Shown here: positions 8,571-32,000 of the stretch, piece after piece
Position numbering within the stretch: position 1 is the stretch's first letter
Layout: each line of letters opens with the position of its first letter
Assembly (NCBI RefSeq): GCF_000017845.1
Contig: NC_010546.1
Location: 3,150,001 to 3,182,000 of the forward strand
Source: Crocosphaera subtropica ATCC 51142
GTDB lineage: Bacteria; Cyanobacteriota; Cyanobacteriia; Cyanobacteriales; Microcystaceae
Direction of reading: 5' to 3'
DNA: 32,000 nt
Program-made: the position numbers and the translations under genes
Notes under the pieces: generated by a model
The model's database searches: none
What the model saw: the letters and a program-made list of their open reading frames with translations, nothing else
What the model was told of the DNA's origin: nothing

Positions 8571-9155
8571 TTATTGAGGTTCATTAAAATCTACTCCTGC
8601 ATAAATATCTGACAACTGTAATTCAAAAGCGATCGCATTTAACTGTATTGTTAAATCTTCTCCTTCGTATTCCGATAACAACCATTTTTTATCTTCAGTT
8701 TTAGTGTATTGCATAATATGATATTGTTCCTGAGCAATCAAAATATATTCTTCTATTTCAGGAATGGAACGATAGTAAGTAAATTTATCGCCTTGGTCGT
8801 AATTTTGAGTCGATTTGGATAAGACTTCTGCAATTAAAATAGGATTGGTTACAGTCGTGGTTCCTTTATCAGCATAAATCGGTTTTCCTTTGATGACCAT
8901 AACATCGGGATAAGTATAGACGCGATGACGAGGTATCCAGAGACGCACATCTCCAATATAGACGCGATAATTTTGCTGTCTTAAACCAAATTTGAGGTTG
9001 GTATAACAATTTCCGGCAATTTCATTATGGTTGGTTGTTCCTCCTGTCATGGGGATGATTTCTCCATCGTGGTATTCGTTTTTGTATTCTGCTTGTTCTT
9101 CTAACTGTAAATATTCTTCTGGGGTATATTGACGATTTTGAGTTTGTAATTGCAT
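8571..9155 (-). CDS. Uma2-family (DUF820, PD-(D/E)XK-like putative restriction endonuclease fold) protein
   Basis: 194-aa ORF with ATG start. Typical Uma2 layout: 'YTPEEYLQLEEQAEYKNEYHDGEIIPMTGGTTNHNEI', 'YIGDVRLWIP', 'YPDVMVIKG', 'LIAEVLSKST', 'DKFTYYRSIPEIEEYILI'. Lies between two NRPS genes on the same strand. Confidence 0.8.
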   Translation of the reverse strand: MQLQTQNRQYTPEEYLQLEEQAEYKNEYHDGEIIPMTGGTTNHNEIAGNCYTNLKFGLRQQNYRVYIGDVRLWIPRHRVYTYPDVMVIKGKPIYADKGTTTVTNPILIAEVLSKSTQNYDQGDKFTYYRSIPEIEEYILIAQEQYHIMQYTKTEDKKWLLSEYEGEDLTIQLNAIAFELQLSDIYAGVDFNEPQ

Positions 9156-25350: not shown

Positions 25351-25887
25351 ATGCTTAAACCTCTTCAAAAGATAACTTTAGCAGCCAGTGGTGTTGCTTT
25401 TAGCCTAGTTACTGCCCTATATGCAAACCCAACCCAAGCAGCAACGGTGGCTTACGATTTCAGTGTATCAATTCCAGACGGAACCTATGGAGGATTTTTT
25501 GAGTATGATGATGAAGGCTTAAGCAGTTCAGGGTTTGATCAGGTTTCTGTGTCTGAGTTTTTCTTTGACTTTTTGGGGGTTGAATATACAGAAGTTGATG
25601 TTCCTGATGCTACAGTTGATTTTCAAGACGGCAGTTTCATCGCATTGAGTATTCCTGGAGACAATACTCCTTTTACTTTTGTTCCTCCTAGTTTAAGTGG
25701 TGGTGACTCCTTATTCGTTGTCCCTGAAGATCAGATCGTTGGGAATATTACCTACACTTTAGTTGAACAACCTCCCGAAGCACCTCCAGAAAATCCCGCT
25801 GTTAGTGTTCCTGAACCAAGCAGTGGAGTCGCCTTATTGATGTTAGCTCCCCTTGGCATTATTCGTGGGTTAAAGAAACAGCAATAA
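25351..25887 (+). CDS. PEP-CTERM sorting-domain secreted protein
   Basis: 178 aa with ATG start and GGAG about 12 nt upstream. N-terminal signal-like segment 'ITLAASGVAFSLVTALYANPTQAA'. C-terminus 'VPEPSSGVALLMLAPLGIIRGLKKQQ' has the PEP motif, a hydrophobic helix and a basic tail. Confidence 0.8.
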   Translation: MLKPLQKITLAASGVAFSLVTALYANPTQAATVAYDFSVSIPDGTYGGFFEYDDEGLSSSGFDQVSVSEFFFDFLGVEYTEVDVPDATVDFQDGSFIALSIPGDNTPFTFVPPSLSGGDSLFVVPEDQIVGNITYTLVEQPPEAPPENPAVSVPEPSSGVALLMLAPLGIIRGLKKQQ

Positions 25888-26015: not shown

Positions 26016-26030
26016 GTGCAATTTTTGCAC
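26016..26030. promoter_or_regulatory. perfect palindrome GTGCAA-TTT-TTGCAC, candidate operator
   Basis: 6+3+6 inverted repeat, 20 nt downstream of the TATAAT and 28 nt upstream of ATG 26058. Confidence 0.3.
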
Positions 26031-26057: not shown

Positions 26058-27775
26058 ATGTTTCCAGCCGACTCAACTCTCGTTGACCTGTTACAACACA
26101 GGGCAACTCACCAACCGCAACAGCTAAGTTATGTCTTTCTGACCAATGGGGAAACTGAGGAAATTACCCTGAGTTATCAAACCCTGACAGAAAAAGTAAT
26201 GGCGATCGCAGCCCAGTTACAAGCTATGAACTTGCAGAACGAACGAGCTTTGCTGCTTTATGCCCCTGGGCTTGATTTTGTGACCGCTTTTTTAGGTTGC
26301 TTAGCTGCGGGAGTTGGGGCGGTTCCGGTTTATCCACCCCAAGGGAAACAGCCCTTGTCTCGACTAGAGGCGATCGCAGCAGATGCTGAGGCTAAAATTG
26401 TTCTAACGACCAACAATTTTTTAGCAAAAATTAAGCAATATTTTTCAGAAACAGCGAGGTTTACCTACTTAACTACTGATTCTTTAGACGAAAGTTTAGC
26501 TTTACAGTGGAAACAACCGAATATTAATAGCAAAACCCTGGCTTTCCTCCAATACACCTCTGGCTCAACAGGAAATCCCAAAGGGGTTATGGTGAGTCAT
26601 GGAAACTTACTTCAGAACTCCGCTAATATTTATCGAGGATTTAAGCACAATGATAACAGTCGGGTAGTAAGTTGGCTTCCCCATTACCATGATATGGGGT
26701 TGATAGGAGGTATTCTACAGCCTTTGTACGGGGGTTTCCCTGTTATTTTAATGTCGCCGAGCAGTTTTATCAGAAAACCCATTCGCTGGTTACGGGCTAT
26801 TTCTCGTTATGGTGCGACCACAAGCGGTGGACCTAACTTTGCTTATAAACGCTGTGTAGAAACCATTACCCCCAAACAGAAGGCAGGACTGGACTTGAGT
26901 TCCTGGAAAATAGCTTTTACGGGGGCTGAGTCCATTTCCTCTGAAACCTTAGACCAGTTTGCTGAAGCTTTTGCCCCTTGTGGGTTTCGGCGAGAAGCCT
27001 TTTATCCTTGCTATGGGTTAGCTGAGGCGACTTTATTTGTGACGGGGAAGGTTTTAACGAAGTCAGAACTCAGAAGTCAGAACTCAGAAGTTAGAGAACC
27101 GAACCTTATTAGGGTTGATAGTGAGGCATTACAACAAAATCGAGTGGTTGTGACAATTGATGAAACAGTGAAAACTCAAAAAATTGTTAGTTGTGGTCAA
27201 CCTACTTCAGATGAAACCGTGATTATTGTTGATCCTGAGACTTTATTACCCTGTTCTCCTGAAAAAGTAGGAGAAATCTGGGTTTCGGGGGCTAGTGTTG
27301 CTCAAGGTTATTGGCAGCAAAAAGAAATAACAGAAGCAACGTTTAAGGCTTATCTGGCTGATACAAAAGAAGGGACTTTTTTACGAACAGGAGATTTAGG
27401 CTTTCTCCATGACGGGGAATTATTCGTTACAGGAAGGCTTAAAGATGTGATTATTATTCGGGGTCATAATTATTATCCCCAAGATATAGAACTGACGGTA
27501 GAAAACTCTCACCCTGCTATTCGTCCTAATAATTGTGTAGCAACAAGTATTACCCATGAAGAAGAAGAAAAGCTACTAATAATTGCAGAAATTAAACGAA
27601 AATTCCTACAGAAATTGAATTTAGAAGAAACTATCACGAAAATAAGAGCTAATATTTCTCAAAATCATGGCATTCAAACCGATAATATTGTCTTAGTTAA
27701 ACAGGGTAGTATTCCTAAAACATCAAGCGGTAAAATTCAGCGTCAGGCGTGTAAACAGGCGTATTTAGAACAAAA
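26058..27775 (+). other. fatty acyl-AMP ligase domain
   Basis: 'LAFLQYTSGSTGNPKGVMVSHGNLL', 'SWLPHYHDMGLIGG', 'TSGGPNFAY', 'GLAEATLFVTG', 'LRTGDLGF', 'SSGKIQR'. Confidence 0.9.
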
Positions 27776-29843
27776 TCTGCCCACAATTGAAAGTTTACAA
27801 GTGTTTAAGTCTTCTCCTCATGCCCCCTCTAACTTAATCCAATGGTTACGAAATTATGCCAACGAACATATTAACTCCCGCTTAATGGATGAGCGTCGCT
27901 GCATTCCCCCTCATATTGTGTTAGATTTTGGCAATCAGGGACTCTTAGGGATGCAGGTTCCCCCCGAATATGGAGGATTAGGGTTAAATCATGGGGAAAC
28001 CATGAAGGTAATTGAGCAATTAGGAGCCATTGACACAACATTATCCTTATTTGTGGGATTAAACAATATTTTAGGTATTCGTCCCCTACTACAGTTCGGG
28101 AGTCAAGCTTTAAAAGAAGAACTACTACCTATGTTAGCCACAGGACGAGAACTGGCGGCCTTTGCTTTAACCGAACCAAGTGCCGGCTCAAACCCCCAAG
28201 CCATCACATCTTCTGCCATGCCTCTGTCTTCGGATAAATGGGTATTAAACGGGACTAAAATCTGGAGTGGTTCGGCAGCTTGGGCAGGGGTAATTAACGT
28301 TTTCGTGCAGCAAAAAGACGCACAAGGGAAATTTCAAGGAATAAGCAGTTTTGCCGTCAGAAGGGGAACCCCAGGACTGAAACAGGGGCCCGAAGCCTTA
28401 ACCCTGGGAATGCGAGGCATGGTACAAAATACCGTCTATTTGAATAACGTTCCTGTCAGTGCGTCCCAACAACTGGGAGATCCAGGGGAAGGGATGAAAG
28501 TGGCTCAAGATGCCATGATGTATGGACGGTTAGCCATTGCTGCTGCTAGTGTGGGGGGAATGAAACGTTGCGCTCAGTTGTGGCATCGCTATAGTTCTCG
28601 TCGGCAAATTTCTACGGGGCGTTTATTAGATAATCCTTTGGTTTTAGCCCGTTTAAATGGATTAACGGCTGCCATTACAACAGTGGAAACGTTAGTTACC
28701 AGTATCGCTCAATTGCTAGACCAAGGACAAGAAGTCCCCATTGAGGCTTATACAGTGTGTAAAATGGCCGCTCCTGAGTTTTATTGGCAAGCGGCGGATA
28801 ACTTAGTTCAATTTCTGGGGGGTCGGGGCTATATTGAAACCAATATTGCACCCCAAATTTTACGAGATGCCAGGGTTTTGAGGATTTTTGAAGGGCCAAC
28901 GGAAACCTTAACGGCTTTTCTGGGATCAAGGCTCATTTATCAACCCAAAGGGCTTAAAAGATTGCTTCGTGACACTTTAGGTGTACCTGAAATTTACGAA
29001 CAGTTACAGCAAACCGTTGAGCAAATTCAGTATTACAGAAAATCCCCCTTTACTGAGGCAACAAAAACCAAACATTGGACAGCCATGTTATGTGGAGAAG
29101 TGGCGATGTGGGGCGTTTTGCTGGCAGTATTACAAGCAAAAGCGATCGCAACTCCATTAGAATCATTAGATCGAGCGATCGCTTGGACAAAAGAACATTT
29201 TCAGCAAAAAATTGCCCAAGGGTTTATCAAAACCCCTGATGAACTGGTGATCAGCAGTGCCAACAAGACAACAGAATTAATTGCAGATTACGAAACAGCG
29301 ATCGGGGACATAGAGCAAACCCTGGCAGGGGAAGATCGGGAGTTAGATGAGCTTTTAAGAAAACAAAAGAATGGGGAAATCAGAGAATATTCTGCGGTTA
29401 AGAAGATAGAAAGAGCAGAAAAACCCTTATCCGAAGAAGACTGGGAGAAAAGGGGAGTCATTGAGGACTGGTTGAAGAACTGGTTAGGGAAGAAATTAAA
29501 CCTATCACCCCAAACTATTGATCCAAAGCGAGCGTTTGCTGATTATGGAATTGATTCGGTTATGGCTGTGGAATTAGCTCAAGATTTGCAAGAATGGCTC
29601 GGTCATACGCAAGAATTAGAGGCTAGTCTGGCTTGGAATTTTCCCAATATTAAATCCTTGGCGAAATATTTAACAACTGTAGCATCTGTTGCTGAGGATG
29701 AAGCAGTAGAAGAAATATTGAGCATGGCTGAACCTGAGATGATGTCAGCTATCAAAAACGCCTCAGAAGAAGAAATTCAAACTGCCATTAGCCAAGAAAT
29801 GGCAGAGTTAGAAAGTTTATTGAAGGGAGGTTACCAACGATGA
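26058..29843 (+). CDS. fused fatty acyl-AMP ligase (FAAL) / acyl-CoA dehydrogenase-family / acyl carrier protein loading enzyme
   Basis: The ORF track starts at GTG 26016, but that GTG lies inside a perfect palindrome. ATG 26058 gives 'MFPADSTLVDLLQHRA', a typical FAAL N-terminus. Motifs: FAAL 'LQYTSGSTGNPKGVMVSHGNL', 'WLPHYHDMGL', 'GGPNFAY'; ACAD 'FALTEPSAGSN', 'RIFEGPTE'; ACP 'YGIDSVMAVEL'. Confidence 0.93.
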   Translation: MFPADSTLVDLLQHRATHQPQQLSYVFLTNGETEEITLSYQTLTEKVMAIAAQLQAMNLQNERALLLYAPGLDFVTAFLGCLAAGVGAVPVYPPQGKQPLSRLEAIAADAEAKIVLTTNNFLAKIKQYFSETARFTYLTTDSLDESLALQWKQPNINSKTLAFLQYTSGSTGNPKGVMVSHGNLLQNSANIYRGFKHNDNSRVVSWLPHYHDMGLIGGILQPLYGGFPVILMSPSSFIRKPIRWLRAISRYGATTSGGPNFAYKRCVETITPKQKAGLDLSSWKIAFTGAESISSETLDQFAEAFAPCGFRREAFYPCYGLAEATLFVTGKVLTKSELRSQNSEVREPNLIRVDSEALQQNRVVVTIDETVKTQKIVSCGQPTSDETVIIVDPETLLPCSPEKVGEIWVSGASVAQGYWQQKEITEATFKAYLADTKEGTFLRTGDLGFLHDGELFVTGRLKDVIIIRGHNYYPQDIELTVENSHPAIRPNNCVATSITHEEEEKLLIIAEIKRKFLQKLNLEETITKIRANISQNHGIQTDNIVLVKQGSIPKTSSGKIQRQACKQAYLEQNLPTIESLQVFKSSPHAPSNLIQWLRNYANEHINSRLMDERRCIPPHIVLDFGNQGLLGMQVPPEYGGLGLNHGETMKVIEQLGAIDTTLSLFVGLNNILGIRPLLQFGSQALKEELLPMLATGRELAAFALTEPSAGSNPQAITSSAMPLSSDKWVLNGTKIWSGSAAWAGVINVFVQQKDAQGKFQGISSFAVRRGTPGLKQGPEALTLGMRGMVQNTVYLNNVPVSASQQLGDPGEGMKVAQDAMMYGRLAIAAASVGGMKRCAQLWHRYSSRRQISTGRLLDNPLVLARLNGLTAAITTVETLVTSIAQLLDQGQEVPIEAYTVCKMAAPEFYWQAADNLVQFLGGRGYIETNIAPQILRDARVLRIFEGPTETLTAFLGSRLIYQPKGLKRLLRDTLGVPEIYEQLQQTVEQIQYYRKSPFTEATKTKHWTAMLCGEVAMWGVLLAVLQAKAIATPLESLDRAIAWTKEHFQQKIAQGFIKTPDELVISSANKTTELIADYETAIGDIEQTLAGEDRELDELLRKQKNGEIREYSAVKKIERAEKPLSEEDWEKRGVIEDWLKNWLGKKLNLSPQTIDPKRAFADYGIDSVMAVELAQDLQEWLGHTQELEASLAWNFPNIKSLAKYLTTVASVAEDEAVEEILSMAEPEMMSAIKNASEEEIQTAISQEMAELESLLKGGYQR
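27059..27105. repeat. 14-bp (2 x 7) tandem repeat, three units, in frame in the FAAL domain
   Basis: 'gaagtcagaactca' at 27059-27072 and 27073-27086, then degenerate 'gaagttagagaacc'. 42 bp equals 14 codons, encoding KSELRSQNSEVREP. Confidence 0.85.
27830..28960 (+). other. acyl-CoA dehydrogenase-family domain
   Basis: 'VPPEYGGLGL', 'AAFALTEPSAGSNP', 'LNGTKIWSG', 'GGRGYIE', 'RIFEGPTETL'. The candidate catalytic Glu codon is at 28890..28892. Confidence 0.85.
29460..29675 (+). other. acyl carrier protein domain
   Basis: 'FADYGIDSVMAVELAQDL'. The Ser codon is at 29556..29558. Confidence 0.85.
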
Positions 29844-32000
29844 ATCATGAACTTTCCGACTCCCAGAGAGTGCTTCTTGCCCTCAAACAAGCCCGTTTGC
29901 AGCTAGAAACCCTTGAACGACAAAAAAACGAGCCTATTGCCATTATTGGCATGGACTGCCGTTTTCCAGGGGATGCCAACAGTCCCGAAGCTTACTGGGA
30001 ACTCTTGCGTAATGGTGTGGATGGGATCACCGATATTCCTGGCGATCGCTGGAACGTAGAAACCTATTACGACTCAGATCCCGACGTTCCTGGGAAAATG
30101 TACACTCGTTACGGAGGATTTATCGATGGGGTGGATCAGTTTGATCCTCAATTTTTCGGCATTTCTCCCCGTGAAGCCATGAGTCTTGATCCTCAGCAAC
30201 GATTACTCTTAGAAGTGAGTTATACTGCCTTAGAACGGGCAGGACAGCCCCTAGACTCCTTAGAAGGGAGCAAAACCGGGGTATTTATGGGGATTTGTTT
30301 TGACGACTATTCTCGGTTAAGCCTTAACTCTGGTGATCCCACGTTGATCGATGCCTATAGTAGTTTAGGGAATACCCGCAGTATTGCCGTAGGACGTATC
30401 GCCTATGTGTTGGGACTACAGGGGCCGGTGATACAGTTAGATACCACCTGTTCCTCTTCATTGTTAGCGGTTCATCTCGCCTGTCAAAGCTTACGCACGG
30501 GAGAATCTAATTTAGCCTTAGCAGGAGGGGTTAATTTAATGCTCTCTCCTGAAGTCAGCATCGGTTTTTCTAAGCTCAAAGCTCTTGCCCCTGACGGACG
30601 CTGTAAAACCTTCGATCAACGGGCTGATGGCTACGGACGGGGAGAAGGCTGTGGTATTGTGGTGTTAAAACGGTTATCCGATGCGATCGCCGATGGTGAT
30701 ACTATTTTAGCAACCGTTCTTGGTTCAGCCGTCAATCATGATGGTCAAAGCAACGGCTTAACAGCCCCCAATGGTTCGGCCCAGGAAGCGGTGATCCGTC
30801 AAGCCTTAGAAAATGCCAAAGTTGATCCCACTCAGATCCAATATGTAGAAACTCACGGCACAGGAACATCTTTGGGCGACCCCATTGAAGTGTTGGCCTT
30901 GAGTAAGGTGTTAGGAGAAGGCAGAAAAGAGGATAACCCCATTAATATTGGCTCAGTTAAAACGAATTTTGGTCATCTGGAGTCGGCTGCTGGGGTGGCG
31001 AGTTTGATCAAGGTTATTTTGTCACTGCAACATCAAGAGATTCCTCCCCACCTTCATTTTCAAACCCCAAACCCTTATATTCCCTGGCACAAGCTACCCG
31101 TAACCGTTCCTACTACCTTAACCCCTTGGGAAGTCAAAAATGGCCGTCGTTTAGCAGGTGTTAGTTCCTTTGGCATGAGTGGGACGAATGTTCATCTTAT
31201 TGTCGGAGAAAGCGCAAAAATTAAGGAAAACATTGAAACACCAAAAGTTGACCGCCCCTTACATCTATTAACCTTATCCGCCAAAACCGAAACCGCTTTA
31301 CAAGCACAGATAGAACAATATAAAACCTATTTAACCACCCATAAAAACCTATCTTTTGCCGATATTTGTTTCAGTGTTAATAAAAAGCGATCGCACTTTG
31401 ATTATCGTCTCAATATTATAGCTAGTTGTGTAAAAGAAGCATCAGAAAAACTAAATAATTCATTGCCTCCTGCCTTCTCCCGTTTGGTAAAGGGGGGCAA
31501 GGGGGTATCGCTTCCTATTGCCTTTTTATTCACCGGACAAGGTTCCCAATATATGGGTATGGGACAACAACTTTATCAAACCCAACCCACTTTTAAAGCA
31601 ACATTTGATTACTGTTGTGACATCCTTCAATCTTACCTAGGATGGGATCTCAGAGAGATTCTTTTTGCAACAGAATATCCCCACTTTATAAGGGGAGGTA
31701 GGGGGGGATCTCCTGCCTCCTCCTTACACTCAACAATTAATACGCAACCTGCTTTATTCGTCATTGAATATGCTTTAGCCAAACTATGGCTATCTTGGGG
31801 GATTAAACCTAATATAATGATCGGTCATAGTATTGGGGAATATGTCGCAGCCACCCTAGCAGGGGTATTTAGTTTAGAAGATGGCTTAAAACTGATTACA
31901 GCTAGAGCGCAACTAATGCAAGCACTGCCTGAAACTGGCTCAATGGTGGCTGTTTTTGCAACATTAGAAACCGTAAAAAAAGCAATTAATTCTTACTCAG
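29840..32000 (+). CDS. type I polyketide synthase (KS-AT...), 3'-partial, continues beyond the window
   Basis: Not in the ORF track because no stop is reached. The ATG overlaps the upstream stop (ATGA at 29840-29843). My translation: '[44 protein letters not shown]...', '[12 protein letters not shown]', '[14 protein letters not shown]', '[10 protein letters not shown]', then AT '[10 protein letters not shown]', 'GHSIGE'. Confidence 0.93.
   Translation, partial: [720 protein letters not shown]
29932..31205 (+). other. ketosynthase domain
   Basis: The Cys codon is at 30449..30451 in 'DTTCSSSL'. Also 'ETHGTGT' and 'NFGHLE'. Confidence 0.9.
31465..31511. repeat. G-run mini-element with heptamer flank, in frame in a plus-strand PKS (opposite orientation relative to translation)
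   Basis: 'gcctcctgccttctcccgtttggtaaaggggggcaagggggtatcgc' encodes [15 protein letters not shown], just before the AT GQGSQ motif. Confidence 0.75.
31517..32000 (+). other. acyltransferase domain (partial)
   Basis: '[14 protein letters not shown]'. 'GHSIGE' has its Ser codon at 31829..31831. The specificity motif lies beyond the window. Confidence 0.8.
31688..31723. repeat. G-run/GATC mini-element plus TCCTGCC heptamers, in frame in the plus-strand AT domain
   Basis: 'ataaggggaggtagggggggatctcctgcctcctcc' encodes [12 protein letters not shown]. Confidence 0.8.

Follow-up and report, generated by a model that had tools for sequence, protein, structure and literature searches.

One gene in the 32,000-nt stretch of the Crocosphaera subtropica ATCC 51142 genome analysed here (NC_010546.1, positions 3,150,001 to 3,182,000 of the forward strand; hereafter, the window) encodes a polypeptide that joins a FAAL (fatty acyl-AMP ligase), an acyl-CoA dehydrogenase (ACAD)-fold domain and an acyl carrier protein (ACP). 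We think it probable, at roughly 75%, that this tri-domain protein is the loading module of a hybrid polyketide/peptide line, in which the FAAL loads its own ACP, the ACAD desaturates the chain and the starter passes to a condensing ketosynthase (KS). The fused FAAL-ACAD-ACP design is widespread among cyanobacteria, and earlier publications describe it. What is new here is the anatomy of the dehydrogenase, which is of the very-long-chain acyl-CoA dehydrogenase (VLCAD) type, its own flavin-site signature, the lack of electron-transfer flavoprotein (ETF) and a direct sequence link to NocC. Residue numbers are those of the 1261-aa form of the protein unless stated otherwise.

The desaturase reading draws its strongest support from the homology to NocC. 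Searching protein sequences with the dehydrogenase part (E <=1e-60, 283–902 aa range), we found 513 matching proteins, many of them stand-alone with 520–560 aa and some of them ACAD-ACP didomains. Among them, NocC of Nodularia sp. HBU26 shares 51% identity with the dehydrogenase part plus its C-terminal extension (507 residues, E 5e-180), and NocC of Nostoc sp. CCAP 1453/38 is 53% identical to the dehydrogenase part at 99% coverage. The motifs KIWSGSA, GSN, GGRGY and RIFEGPTETL are all common to NocC and the tri-domain protein. For the purified NocC and NocI from Nodularia sp. LEGE 06071, in vitro desaturation of hexanoyl- through dodecanoyl-ACP has been shown (PMC9486936); the NocC sequences that we compared belong to strains other than this assayed one, and their 90%-identity cluster includes unclassified Nodularia entries. 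NocC, encoded in the noc/cly locus, is of the same ACAD family and likewise has the C-terminal extension; it acts on chains that the FAAL ClyA loads onto the ACP ClyB, the three being separate proteins. It is a stand-alone enzyme of 535–550 aa that works in trans, whereas the tri-domain protein has all three parts in one polypeptide. Desaturation of an ACP-tethered acyl chain by the tri-domain protein is therefore well supported as a prediction. The first-pass annotation, a model's reading of the letters of this DNA, had proposed oxidation in cis of an ACP-tethered starter before the first KS, and this proposal gains support by homology from the NocC identity, the conserved residues and a split gene row described below.

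The gene lies on the plus strand and, according to the ORF list and its translation, runs from either a GTG at 26016 or an ATG at 26058 to 29843, giving 1275 or 1261 aa. A protein identical to the 1275-aa form is on record. Homologues have 0–58 residues, mostly 16–17, before the first conserved block; the ATG start would leave 6 and the GTG start 20, so that these N-terminal lengths favour neither start. Pfam confirmed that one polypeptide comprises a FAAL, a complete ACAD-fold domain and an ACP, all six domain matches exceeding the curated cut-offs. The other particulars of the first-pass description, checked at the codons, were also borne out: the Glu of 'RIFEGPTE' is residue 945, 'GIDSV' holds Ser1167, and the stop codon of the gene (TGA, 29841–29843) overlaps the ATG (29840–29842) of the downstream open reading frame (ORF), which encodes KS and acyltransferase (AT) domains of a polyketide synthase (PKS), in an ATGA; the junction reads ACGATGAATC. 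The Pfam matches, by residue, are:

Residues 12–419: AMP-binding (PF00501), E 7e-69
Residues 463–578: AMP-dom_DIP2-like (PF23024), FAAL-type C subdomain, E 4e-18
Residues 595–696: Acyl-CoA_dh_N (PF02771), E 2e-20
Residues 701–798: Acyl-CoA_dh_M (PF02770), E 5.6e-21
Residues 810–959: Acyl-CoA_dh_1 (PF00441), E 3.4e-30
Residues 1137–1205: PP-binding (PF00550), E 8.7e-11

The features of the window, with the evidence for each in brackets, are:

26058..29843, plus strand: whole FAAL / VLCAD-type ACAD / ACP gene, alternative GTG start at 26016 (ORF list, translation, Pfam)
26091..27791, plus strand: fatty acyl-AMP ligase part (PF00501, PF23024, solved FAAL relatives, motifs kept in 120 homologues)
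27840..28934, plus strand: ACAD-fold core with N, middle and C domains, residues 595–959 (Pfam, phmmer against the PDB, AlphaFold2)
28260..28286, plus strand: flavin-site motif K-I-W-S-G-S-A-A-W, family-specific (conservation counts, contrast with ACADs of ETF-bearing genomes)
28890..28892, plus strand: codon of Glu945, the predicted catalytic base (alignment with VLCAD/ACAD9, 120 of 120 homologues, present in NocC)
28947..29303, plus strand: predicted all-helical C-terminal domain of VLCAD/ACAD9 type, residues ~964–1082 (model, Foldseek, stand-alone relatives)
29376..29423, plus strand: predicted flexible linker between dehydrogenase and ACP, residues ~1107–1122 (pLDDT <50, poorly conserved columns)
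29466..29672, plus strand: ACP domain, residues 1137–1205 (PF00550; Ser1167 at nt 29556–29558)
29673..29840, plus strand: acidic helical C-terminal tail of ~56 residues (sequence, model helix past the ACP)
29840..32000, plus strand: beginning of extension module 1, with translational coupling through the ATGA overlap (Pfam; the full 2539-aa protein runs past the window)

By fold, motifs and closest relatives, the ligase part is a predicted FAAL. In the PDB search its closest solved relatives were FAALs (7r7g, E 1.5e-174; 3kxw, 8e-150; FadD32, 1e-99; then FadD23, FadD28 and 3pbk), where 7r7e/f/g is a 572-residue chain labelled 'Polyketide synthase' and 3pbk was deposited as a fatty acyl-adenylate ligase; the best acyl-CoA ligase match, 3g7s, was far weaker (2e-21). 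The top NCBIfam matches were fatty-acid--AMP ligase models, all under their own cut-offs. The core motifs TSGSTG, GRLKD and SGKIQR are kept across 120 homologues. About 45 residues separate 'YGLAEAT' from 'SCGQP', a segment in which the FAAL-specific insertion would be expected; in the PDB alignment with 7r7g they pair with the corresponding region of that chain and have 10 extra residues. Enzymes of the FAAL class load carrier proteins and reject CoA, and a survey of the class found FAALs sometimes interspersed with dehydrogenases (PMC8460268). The expectation that the FAAL would pass acyl-AMP to a holo-ACP and not to CoA agrees with the ACP fusion and with the split row of FAAL, ACAD and ACP genes. 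The predicted phosphopantetheine serine of this carrier, Ser1167 in a GxDS motif, is present in 119 of the 120 homologues, and AlphaFold2 modelled the domain as a helical bundle. In most homologues 80–100 residues follow this serine; in the Crocosphaera protein, the acidic tail beyond the ACP might possibly serve in docking to the PKS protein that follows.

The dehydrogenase part was compared with solved structures by sequence and by model. In phmmer searches against the PDB, ACAD9 (6e-50) and VLCAD (2e-49) matched it, and Glu945 paired in both alignments with the 'IFEG' Glu, which we take to be their catalytic base. The ACAD-ACP region (residues 596–1240 of the 1275-aa form) was modelled by AlphaFold2 from an alignment of 60 homologues, with a mean pLDDT of 84.7 and a pTM of 0.80. 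The ACAD core is followed in the model by a confident extra helical domain (model residues 383–501, block pLDDT 73–97), then by a disordered linker of ~16 residues (model residues 526–541, pLDDT <50) and the ACP. Foldseek returned more than 370 PDB structure matches at E <0.001. The top ranks went to VLCAD, to ACAD9 and to the long bacterial forms 2z1q and 3owa, with 520–559 columns aligned (around 540 for VLCAD and ACAD9) against about 380 for ordinary ACADs; the alignment with VLCAD 3b96 covered 538 of 554 residues (TM 0.77 by target). The stand-alone relatives (~535–557 aa), NocC among them, also cover the C-terminal helical region. On the model, therefore, the dehydrogenase is predicted to be of VLCAD/ACAD9 type with an extra C-terminal helical domain. 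The first-pass annotation had read the region after the ACAD core as part of a linker. This has to be corrected, since the VLCAD-type domain occupies most of the apparent 175-residue linker and so mostly explains it.

VLCAD, ACAD9 and their bacterial relatives (3b96, 8phf, 2z1q, 3owa) are thus the best matches in both sequence and fold and have in common with the tri-domain protein the C-terminal helical domain and the Glu in IFEG. They differ from it in that the identity in structural alignments is only 22–24%, in that they use acyl-CoA, and in their flavin-site motifs, W-I-[ST]-N-G and GSD against W-S-G-S and GSN. VLCAD-type enzymes are dimeric, so the dehydrogenase domain is probably dimeric as well, and a dimer would suit a dimeric PKS.

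Conservation was counted in an alignment of 120 homologues of the tri-domain protein. The catalytic Glu945, GGRGY and RIFEGPTE are invariant, and TEPxAGSN is conserved (TEPSAGSN in the Crocosphaera protein). The canonical FAD-site motifs of ACADs, TEPxxGSD and W-I-[ST]-N-G, do not occur in the tri-domain protein, which has W-S-G-S-A in place of the latter; Gly738 stands where ordinary ACADs have the Thr of 'WITNG' and is Gly in 120 of 120 homologues. As a family, the FAAL-linked dehydrogenases have W-[SI]-G-S-A, GSN, GGRGY and EGPTE, against W-I-T-N-G, GSD, GG[MY]GY and EGT[NS]E in the ACADs of ETF-bearing genomes of the same phylum. Of the residues whose loss the first-pass annotation had named as a test, the catalytic Glu is kept throughout, and the canonical FAD-site motifs are altered in the same way as in the active NocC. 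Because NocC has both the Gly and the GSN, these changes are no argument for inactivity; the variant characterises a subfamily rather than an inactive enzyme.

The same comparison bears on the idea that the dehydrogenase domain is catalytically silent and that its only part is structural, a dimerising scaffold set between the ligase and the carrier, comparable to that of ACAD9 in complex I assembly. ACAD9 is indeed among the closest solved relatives, a dimer of the VLCAD type would fit a dimeric PKS, and Gly takes the place of the flavin-N5 Thr. However, the catalytic Glu is present in every homologue and the FAD-site motifs are conserved in their family-specific form, stand-alone members of the family exist, and NocC, which has the same Gly, is active on acyl-ACP. 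We consider a silent scaffold very unlikely and have rejected it. As a separate observation, the only other ACAD-like ORF of the genome encodes 619 aa (G000:C1:4169122-4169562, locus L020); in the alignment, Asp ('MFDGST') stands where the catalytic Glu would be, and the usual FAD-site motifs are missing ('SEREHGSD', 'KWPINRA').

VLCAD, ACAD9 and their bacterial relatives hand their electrons to ETF. ETF (PF01012) was not found in the Crocosphaera genome, which is 99.99% complete, while the same search was positive in 10 of 14 control genomes. Across 401 genomes sampled evenly over the phylum, ETF is nearly confined to families outside the class of the Crocosphaera genome; the sampled members of the five families (f1, f3, f4, f6 and f13) that hold carriers from the same order gave no ETF match, while G052 and G121, two carriers farther removed, have it. 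With no ETF in the genome, reoxidation of the reduced flavin must fall to another acceptor, most likely O2 by analogy with AnaB, a cyanobacterial ACAD-fold enzyme that uses O2. AnaB, of which a structure (4irn) is among the PDB matches of the dehydrogenase part, oxidises prolyl-ACP (PMC6053186). For NocC, the main text of the nocuolin paper names no flavin or electron acceptor (PMC9486936).

The absence of ETF from the genome also speaks against a role of the dehydrogenase on free acyl-CoA, as in beta-oxidation, instead of on the tethered acyl-ACP. Such a role would agree with the Pfam and PDB relatives, which are mostly acyl-CoA dehydrogenases. However, the domain sits in a fusion with a FAAL on one side and an ACP on the other, and the FAAL class rejects CoA (PMC8460268); cyanobacteria are reported to be without beta-oxidation (PMC11730487), and NocC works on acyl-ACP. 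Having weighed this possibility, we dismissed it as highly improbable.

The first-pass annotation suggested that the fusion might be unusual or undescribed, which our searches do not support. A whole-protein search returned the FAAL-ACAD-ACP Pfam set from more than 120 sequence clusters (90% identity), of which almost all the named ones are cyanobacterial. Apart from a few partial records, the best 120 whole-protein matches all have this Pfam set, at 46–90% identity. In about 19 of the 401 genomes the dehydrogenase part has a close homologue (E <=2.3e-119, identity >=45%), which in about 14 of them lies within an open frame of 1198–1567 aa, as a fused form. The architecture had, moreover, already been published for NvlI of the nostovalerolactone cluster of Nostoc punctiforme (Krumbholz et al. 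2022), a protein combining FAAL, neighbouring ACAD domain and ACP, for which activation of octanoate and its oxidation were proposed (PMC9324945). Compared by description, NvlI is the same tri-domain loading protein feeding cyanobacterial type I PKS modules, with the same proposed role; it leads to a tetronate-like lactone, whereas the Crocosphaera protein feeds a hybrid of PKS and NRPS (nonribosomal peptide synthetase) with a thiazole-forming module.

In other pathways, the enzymes LipA/LipB/LipD of friulimicin, HxcO/HcmO of the calcium-dependent antibiotic (CDA) and TamA/TamT of tambjamine likewise activate a fatty acid, tether it and oxidise it with an ACAD-fold flavoenzyme. They are separate proteins, some of which yield epoxides or cis-3 double bonds. 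The earlier generalisation that these functions are separate proteins in known lipopeptide pathways fails, however, for enduracidin: Orf45 of Streptomyces fungicidicus is a fusion of ligase and ACAD-like domain in a lipopeptide pathway (PMC9113097). Compared by description, it differs from the Crocosphaera protein in being actinobacterial and two-domain, no ACP being mentioned in that paper.

Split and extended forms of the unit also occur. In one genome (G318), a FAAL (642 aa), an ACAD (539 aa) and an ACP (94 aa) are separate adjacent genes in the same order, followed after one 434-aa ORF by a PKS, which argues that the three parts work together. Some full-length matches carry an added domain, namely a C-terminal aminotransferase, a thioester reductase, a thioesterase or a luciferase-like domain, and another genome (G008) has a FAAL-ACP-aminotransferase protein near a stand-alone ACAD of the FAAL-linked family. 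The split forms and the variants with added domains thus indicate that the FAAL-ACAD-ACP unit is modular and that its parts travel together.

Some particulars of these forms may be recorded. Some Nostoc-type proteins of ~1700 aa (P0063, P0079, P0084, P0111, P0115 and P0120) combine FAAL-ACAD-ACP with a C-terminal aminotransferase, and one record labels such a protein an alpha-hydroxyketone-type quorum-sensing autoinducer synthase. At the G008 locus (L004:355-10046), the FAAL-ACP-aminotransferase protein stands with a sulfotransferase, a short-chain dehydrogenase, the stand-alone ACAD and an SBF transporter. On one contig (L006, G122:C91:1-16000), a stand-alone ACAD and the long form lie a few kb apart on the same strand; the stand-alone match contains one in-frame TAG, and the long form lies in a 1200–1230-aa frame.

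Against the reading of the protein as a desaturating loading module stand the following points. Its flavin site is non-canonical, an invariant Gly replacing the Thr that contacts flavin N5 and GSN replacing GSD. Our literature search found no assay of any fused FAAL-ACAD-ACP member, and none exists for the tri-domain protein. A 2025 review (PMC11837247) gives the role of NvlI as 'Hypothesis'. The product of the Crocosphaera cluster was not identified in the literature, where the papers found on the PKS/NRPS genes of this strain were genome surveys only, and therefore no double bond of a product can be traced to the dehydrogenase domain. Finally, NocC has been suggested to give the beta,gamma double bond of the chlorosphaerolactylates (PMC9486936), which makes a plain 2-enoyl product uncertain.

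The last point leads to an alternative in which the dehydrogenase domain is active in other chemistry, either as an O2-using oxidase giving a 3-enoyl (beta,gamma) chain or by hydroxylating or epoxidising the starter, a reaction that has been proposed for certain ACAD-like enzymes of lipopeptide pathways. Besides the suggestion made for NocC, it is favoured by the failure to find ETF in the genome or in sampled related carriers, by the W-S-G-S and GSN that stand against the W-I-T-N-G and GSD of ETF-bearing genomes, and by AnaB, in which an ACAD fold oxidises a carrier-bound substrate (PMC6053186). However, the domain has the catalytic Glu and, overall, the active-site motifs of a dehydrogenase, plain acyl-ACP desaturation is what was reported for NocC and NocI, and none of the sequence features that we examined predicts an isomerase, a hydroxylase or an epoxidase. 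Acyl-CoA oxidases may have GSN and W-W-P-G-G motifs resembling those of the FAAL-linked family. The acyl-CoA oxidase family (PF01756) gave no match in the 401 genomes of the phylum, but this search is uninformative because the control genomes gave none either, and a text search of the literature for these motifs returned no relevant paper. On balance, we regard such other chemistry as unlikely.

A broader idea can be offered tentatively, although we would sooner expect it to fail than to hold. The FAAL-linked cyanobacterial dehydrogenases, whether fused or NocC-like, might form a distinct ETF-free clade of the VLCAD type, in which the changes of Thr to Gly and of Asp to Asn may retune the flavin for O2 or another acceptor of oxygenic phototrophs. 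The domain would then be an acyl-ACP oxidase within a PKS loading module, possibly giving a 3-enoyl starter.

Taking the protein as a desaturating loading module, we propose the following course. The FAAL domain would adenylate a free fatty acid, the chain length of which is not readable from the sequence, and load it onto the phosphopantetheine arm of its own C-terminal ACP. In the dehydrogenase, located between ligase and carrier, Glu945 would take the alpha proton and the beta hydride would pass to FAD, giving a 2-enoyl-ACP; a later isomerisation to a 3-enoyl chain is possible, though not predictable from the sequence. The reduced flavin would be reoxidised by an acceptor other than ETF, most likely O2, and the unsaturated starter would be handed to the condensing KS of the coupled KS-AT-DH-cMT-ER-KR-ACP module.

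The tri-domain protein is thus an ordinary member of a widespread and little-studied class of cyanobacterial loading modules. For genome mining, a FAAL-ACAD-ACP starter would predict an unsaturated lipid tail on the product of the orphan PKS/NRPS cluster of Crocosphaera subtropica. Since ligase and carrier are built in, the fused form would be a convenient single-protein system for assaying flavin reoxidation in organisms lacking ETF and the final place of the double bond, and it could also supply unsaturated starters in engineered assembly lines.

The neighbouring genes make the tri-domain gene the first biosynthetic gene of a plus-strand operon in a hybrid PKS/NRPS cluster. Downstream on that strand follow two fully reducing KS-AT-DH-cMT-ER-KR-ACP modules (2539 and 2563 aa), a KS-AT-KR-ACP protein, a 1186-aa ORF and a luciferase-like monooxygenase. 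The KS of the first extension module has the condensing triad Cys-His-His (DTTCSSS / HGTGT / NFGH). The divergent minus-strand genes encode a C-A-T protein, a KS-AT-KR-ACP protein, a two-module NRPS, the second A domain of which has a nitroreductase-type oxidase insert, a Uma2 protein and a large NRPS.

Several minor observations concern these neighbours. KS-AT DNA of the first module (window 31000–32000) is 86% identical to that of the second (G000:C1:3188648-3189607), and from this the two 2.5-kaa extension modules are judged to be recent paralogues or to be exchanging sequence. The 1186-aa ORF between the last PKS module and the luciferase-like monooxygenase (L003:843-4403, plus strand, which is G000:C1:3199843-3203403), ~21 kb past the window end, had no Pfam match and NCBIfam matches at chance level only. 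Directly upstream of the loading gene, a 178-aa ORF (window 25351–25887, plus strand) had no Pfam or NCBIfam match. The Uma2-family gene (window 8571–9155, minus strand; E 1.1e-32), encoding a putative endonuclease, lies between the two NRPS genes of the minus-strand operon.

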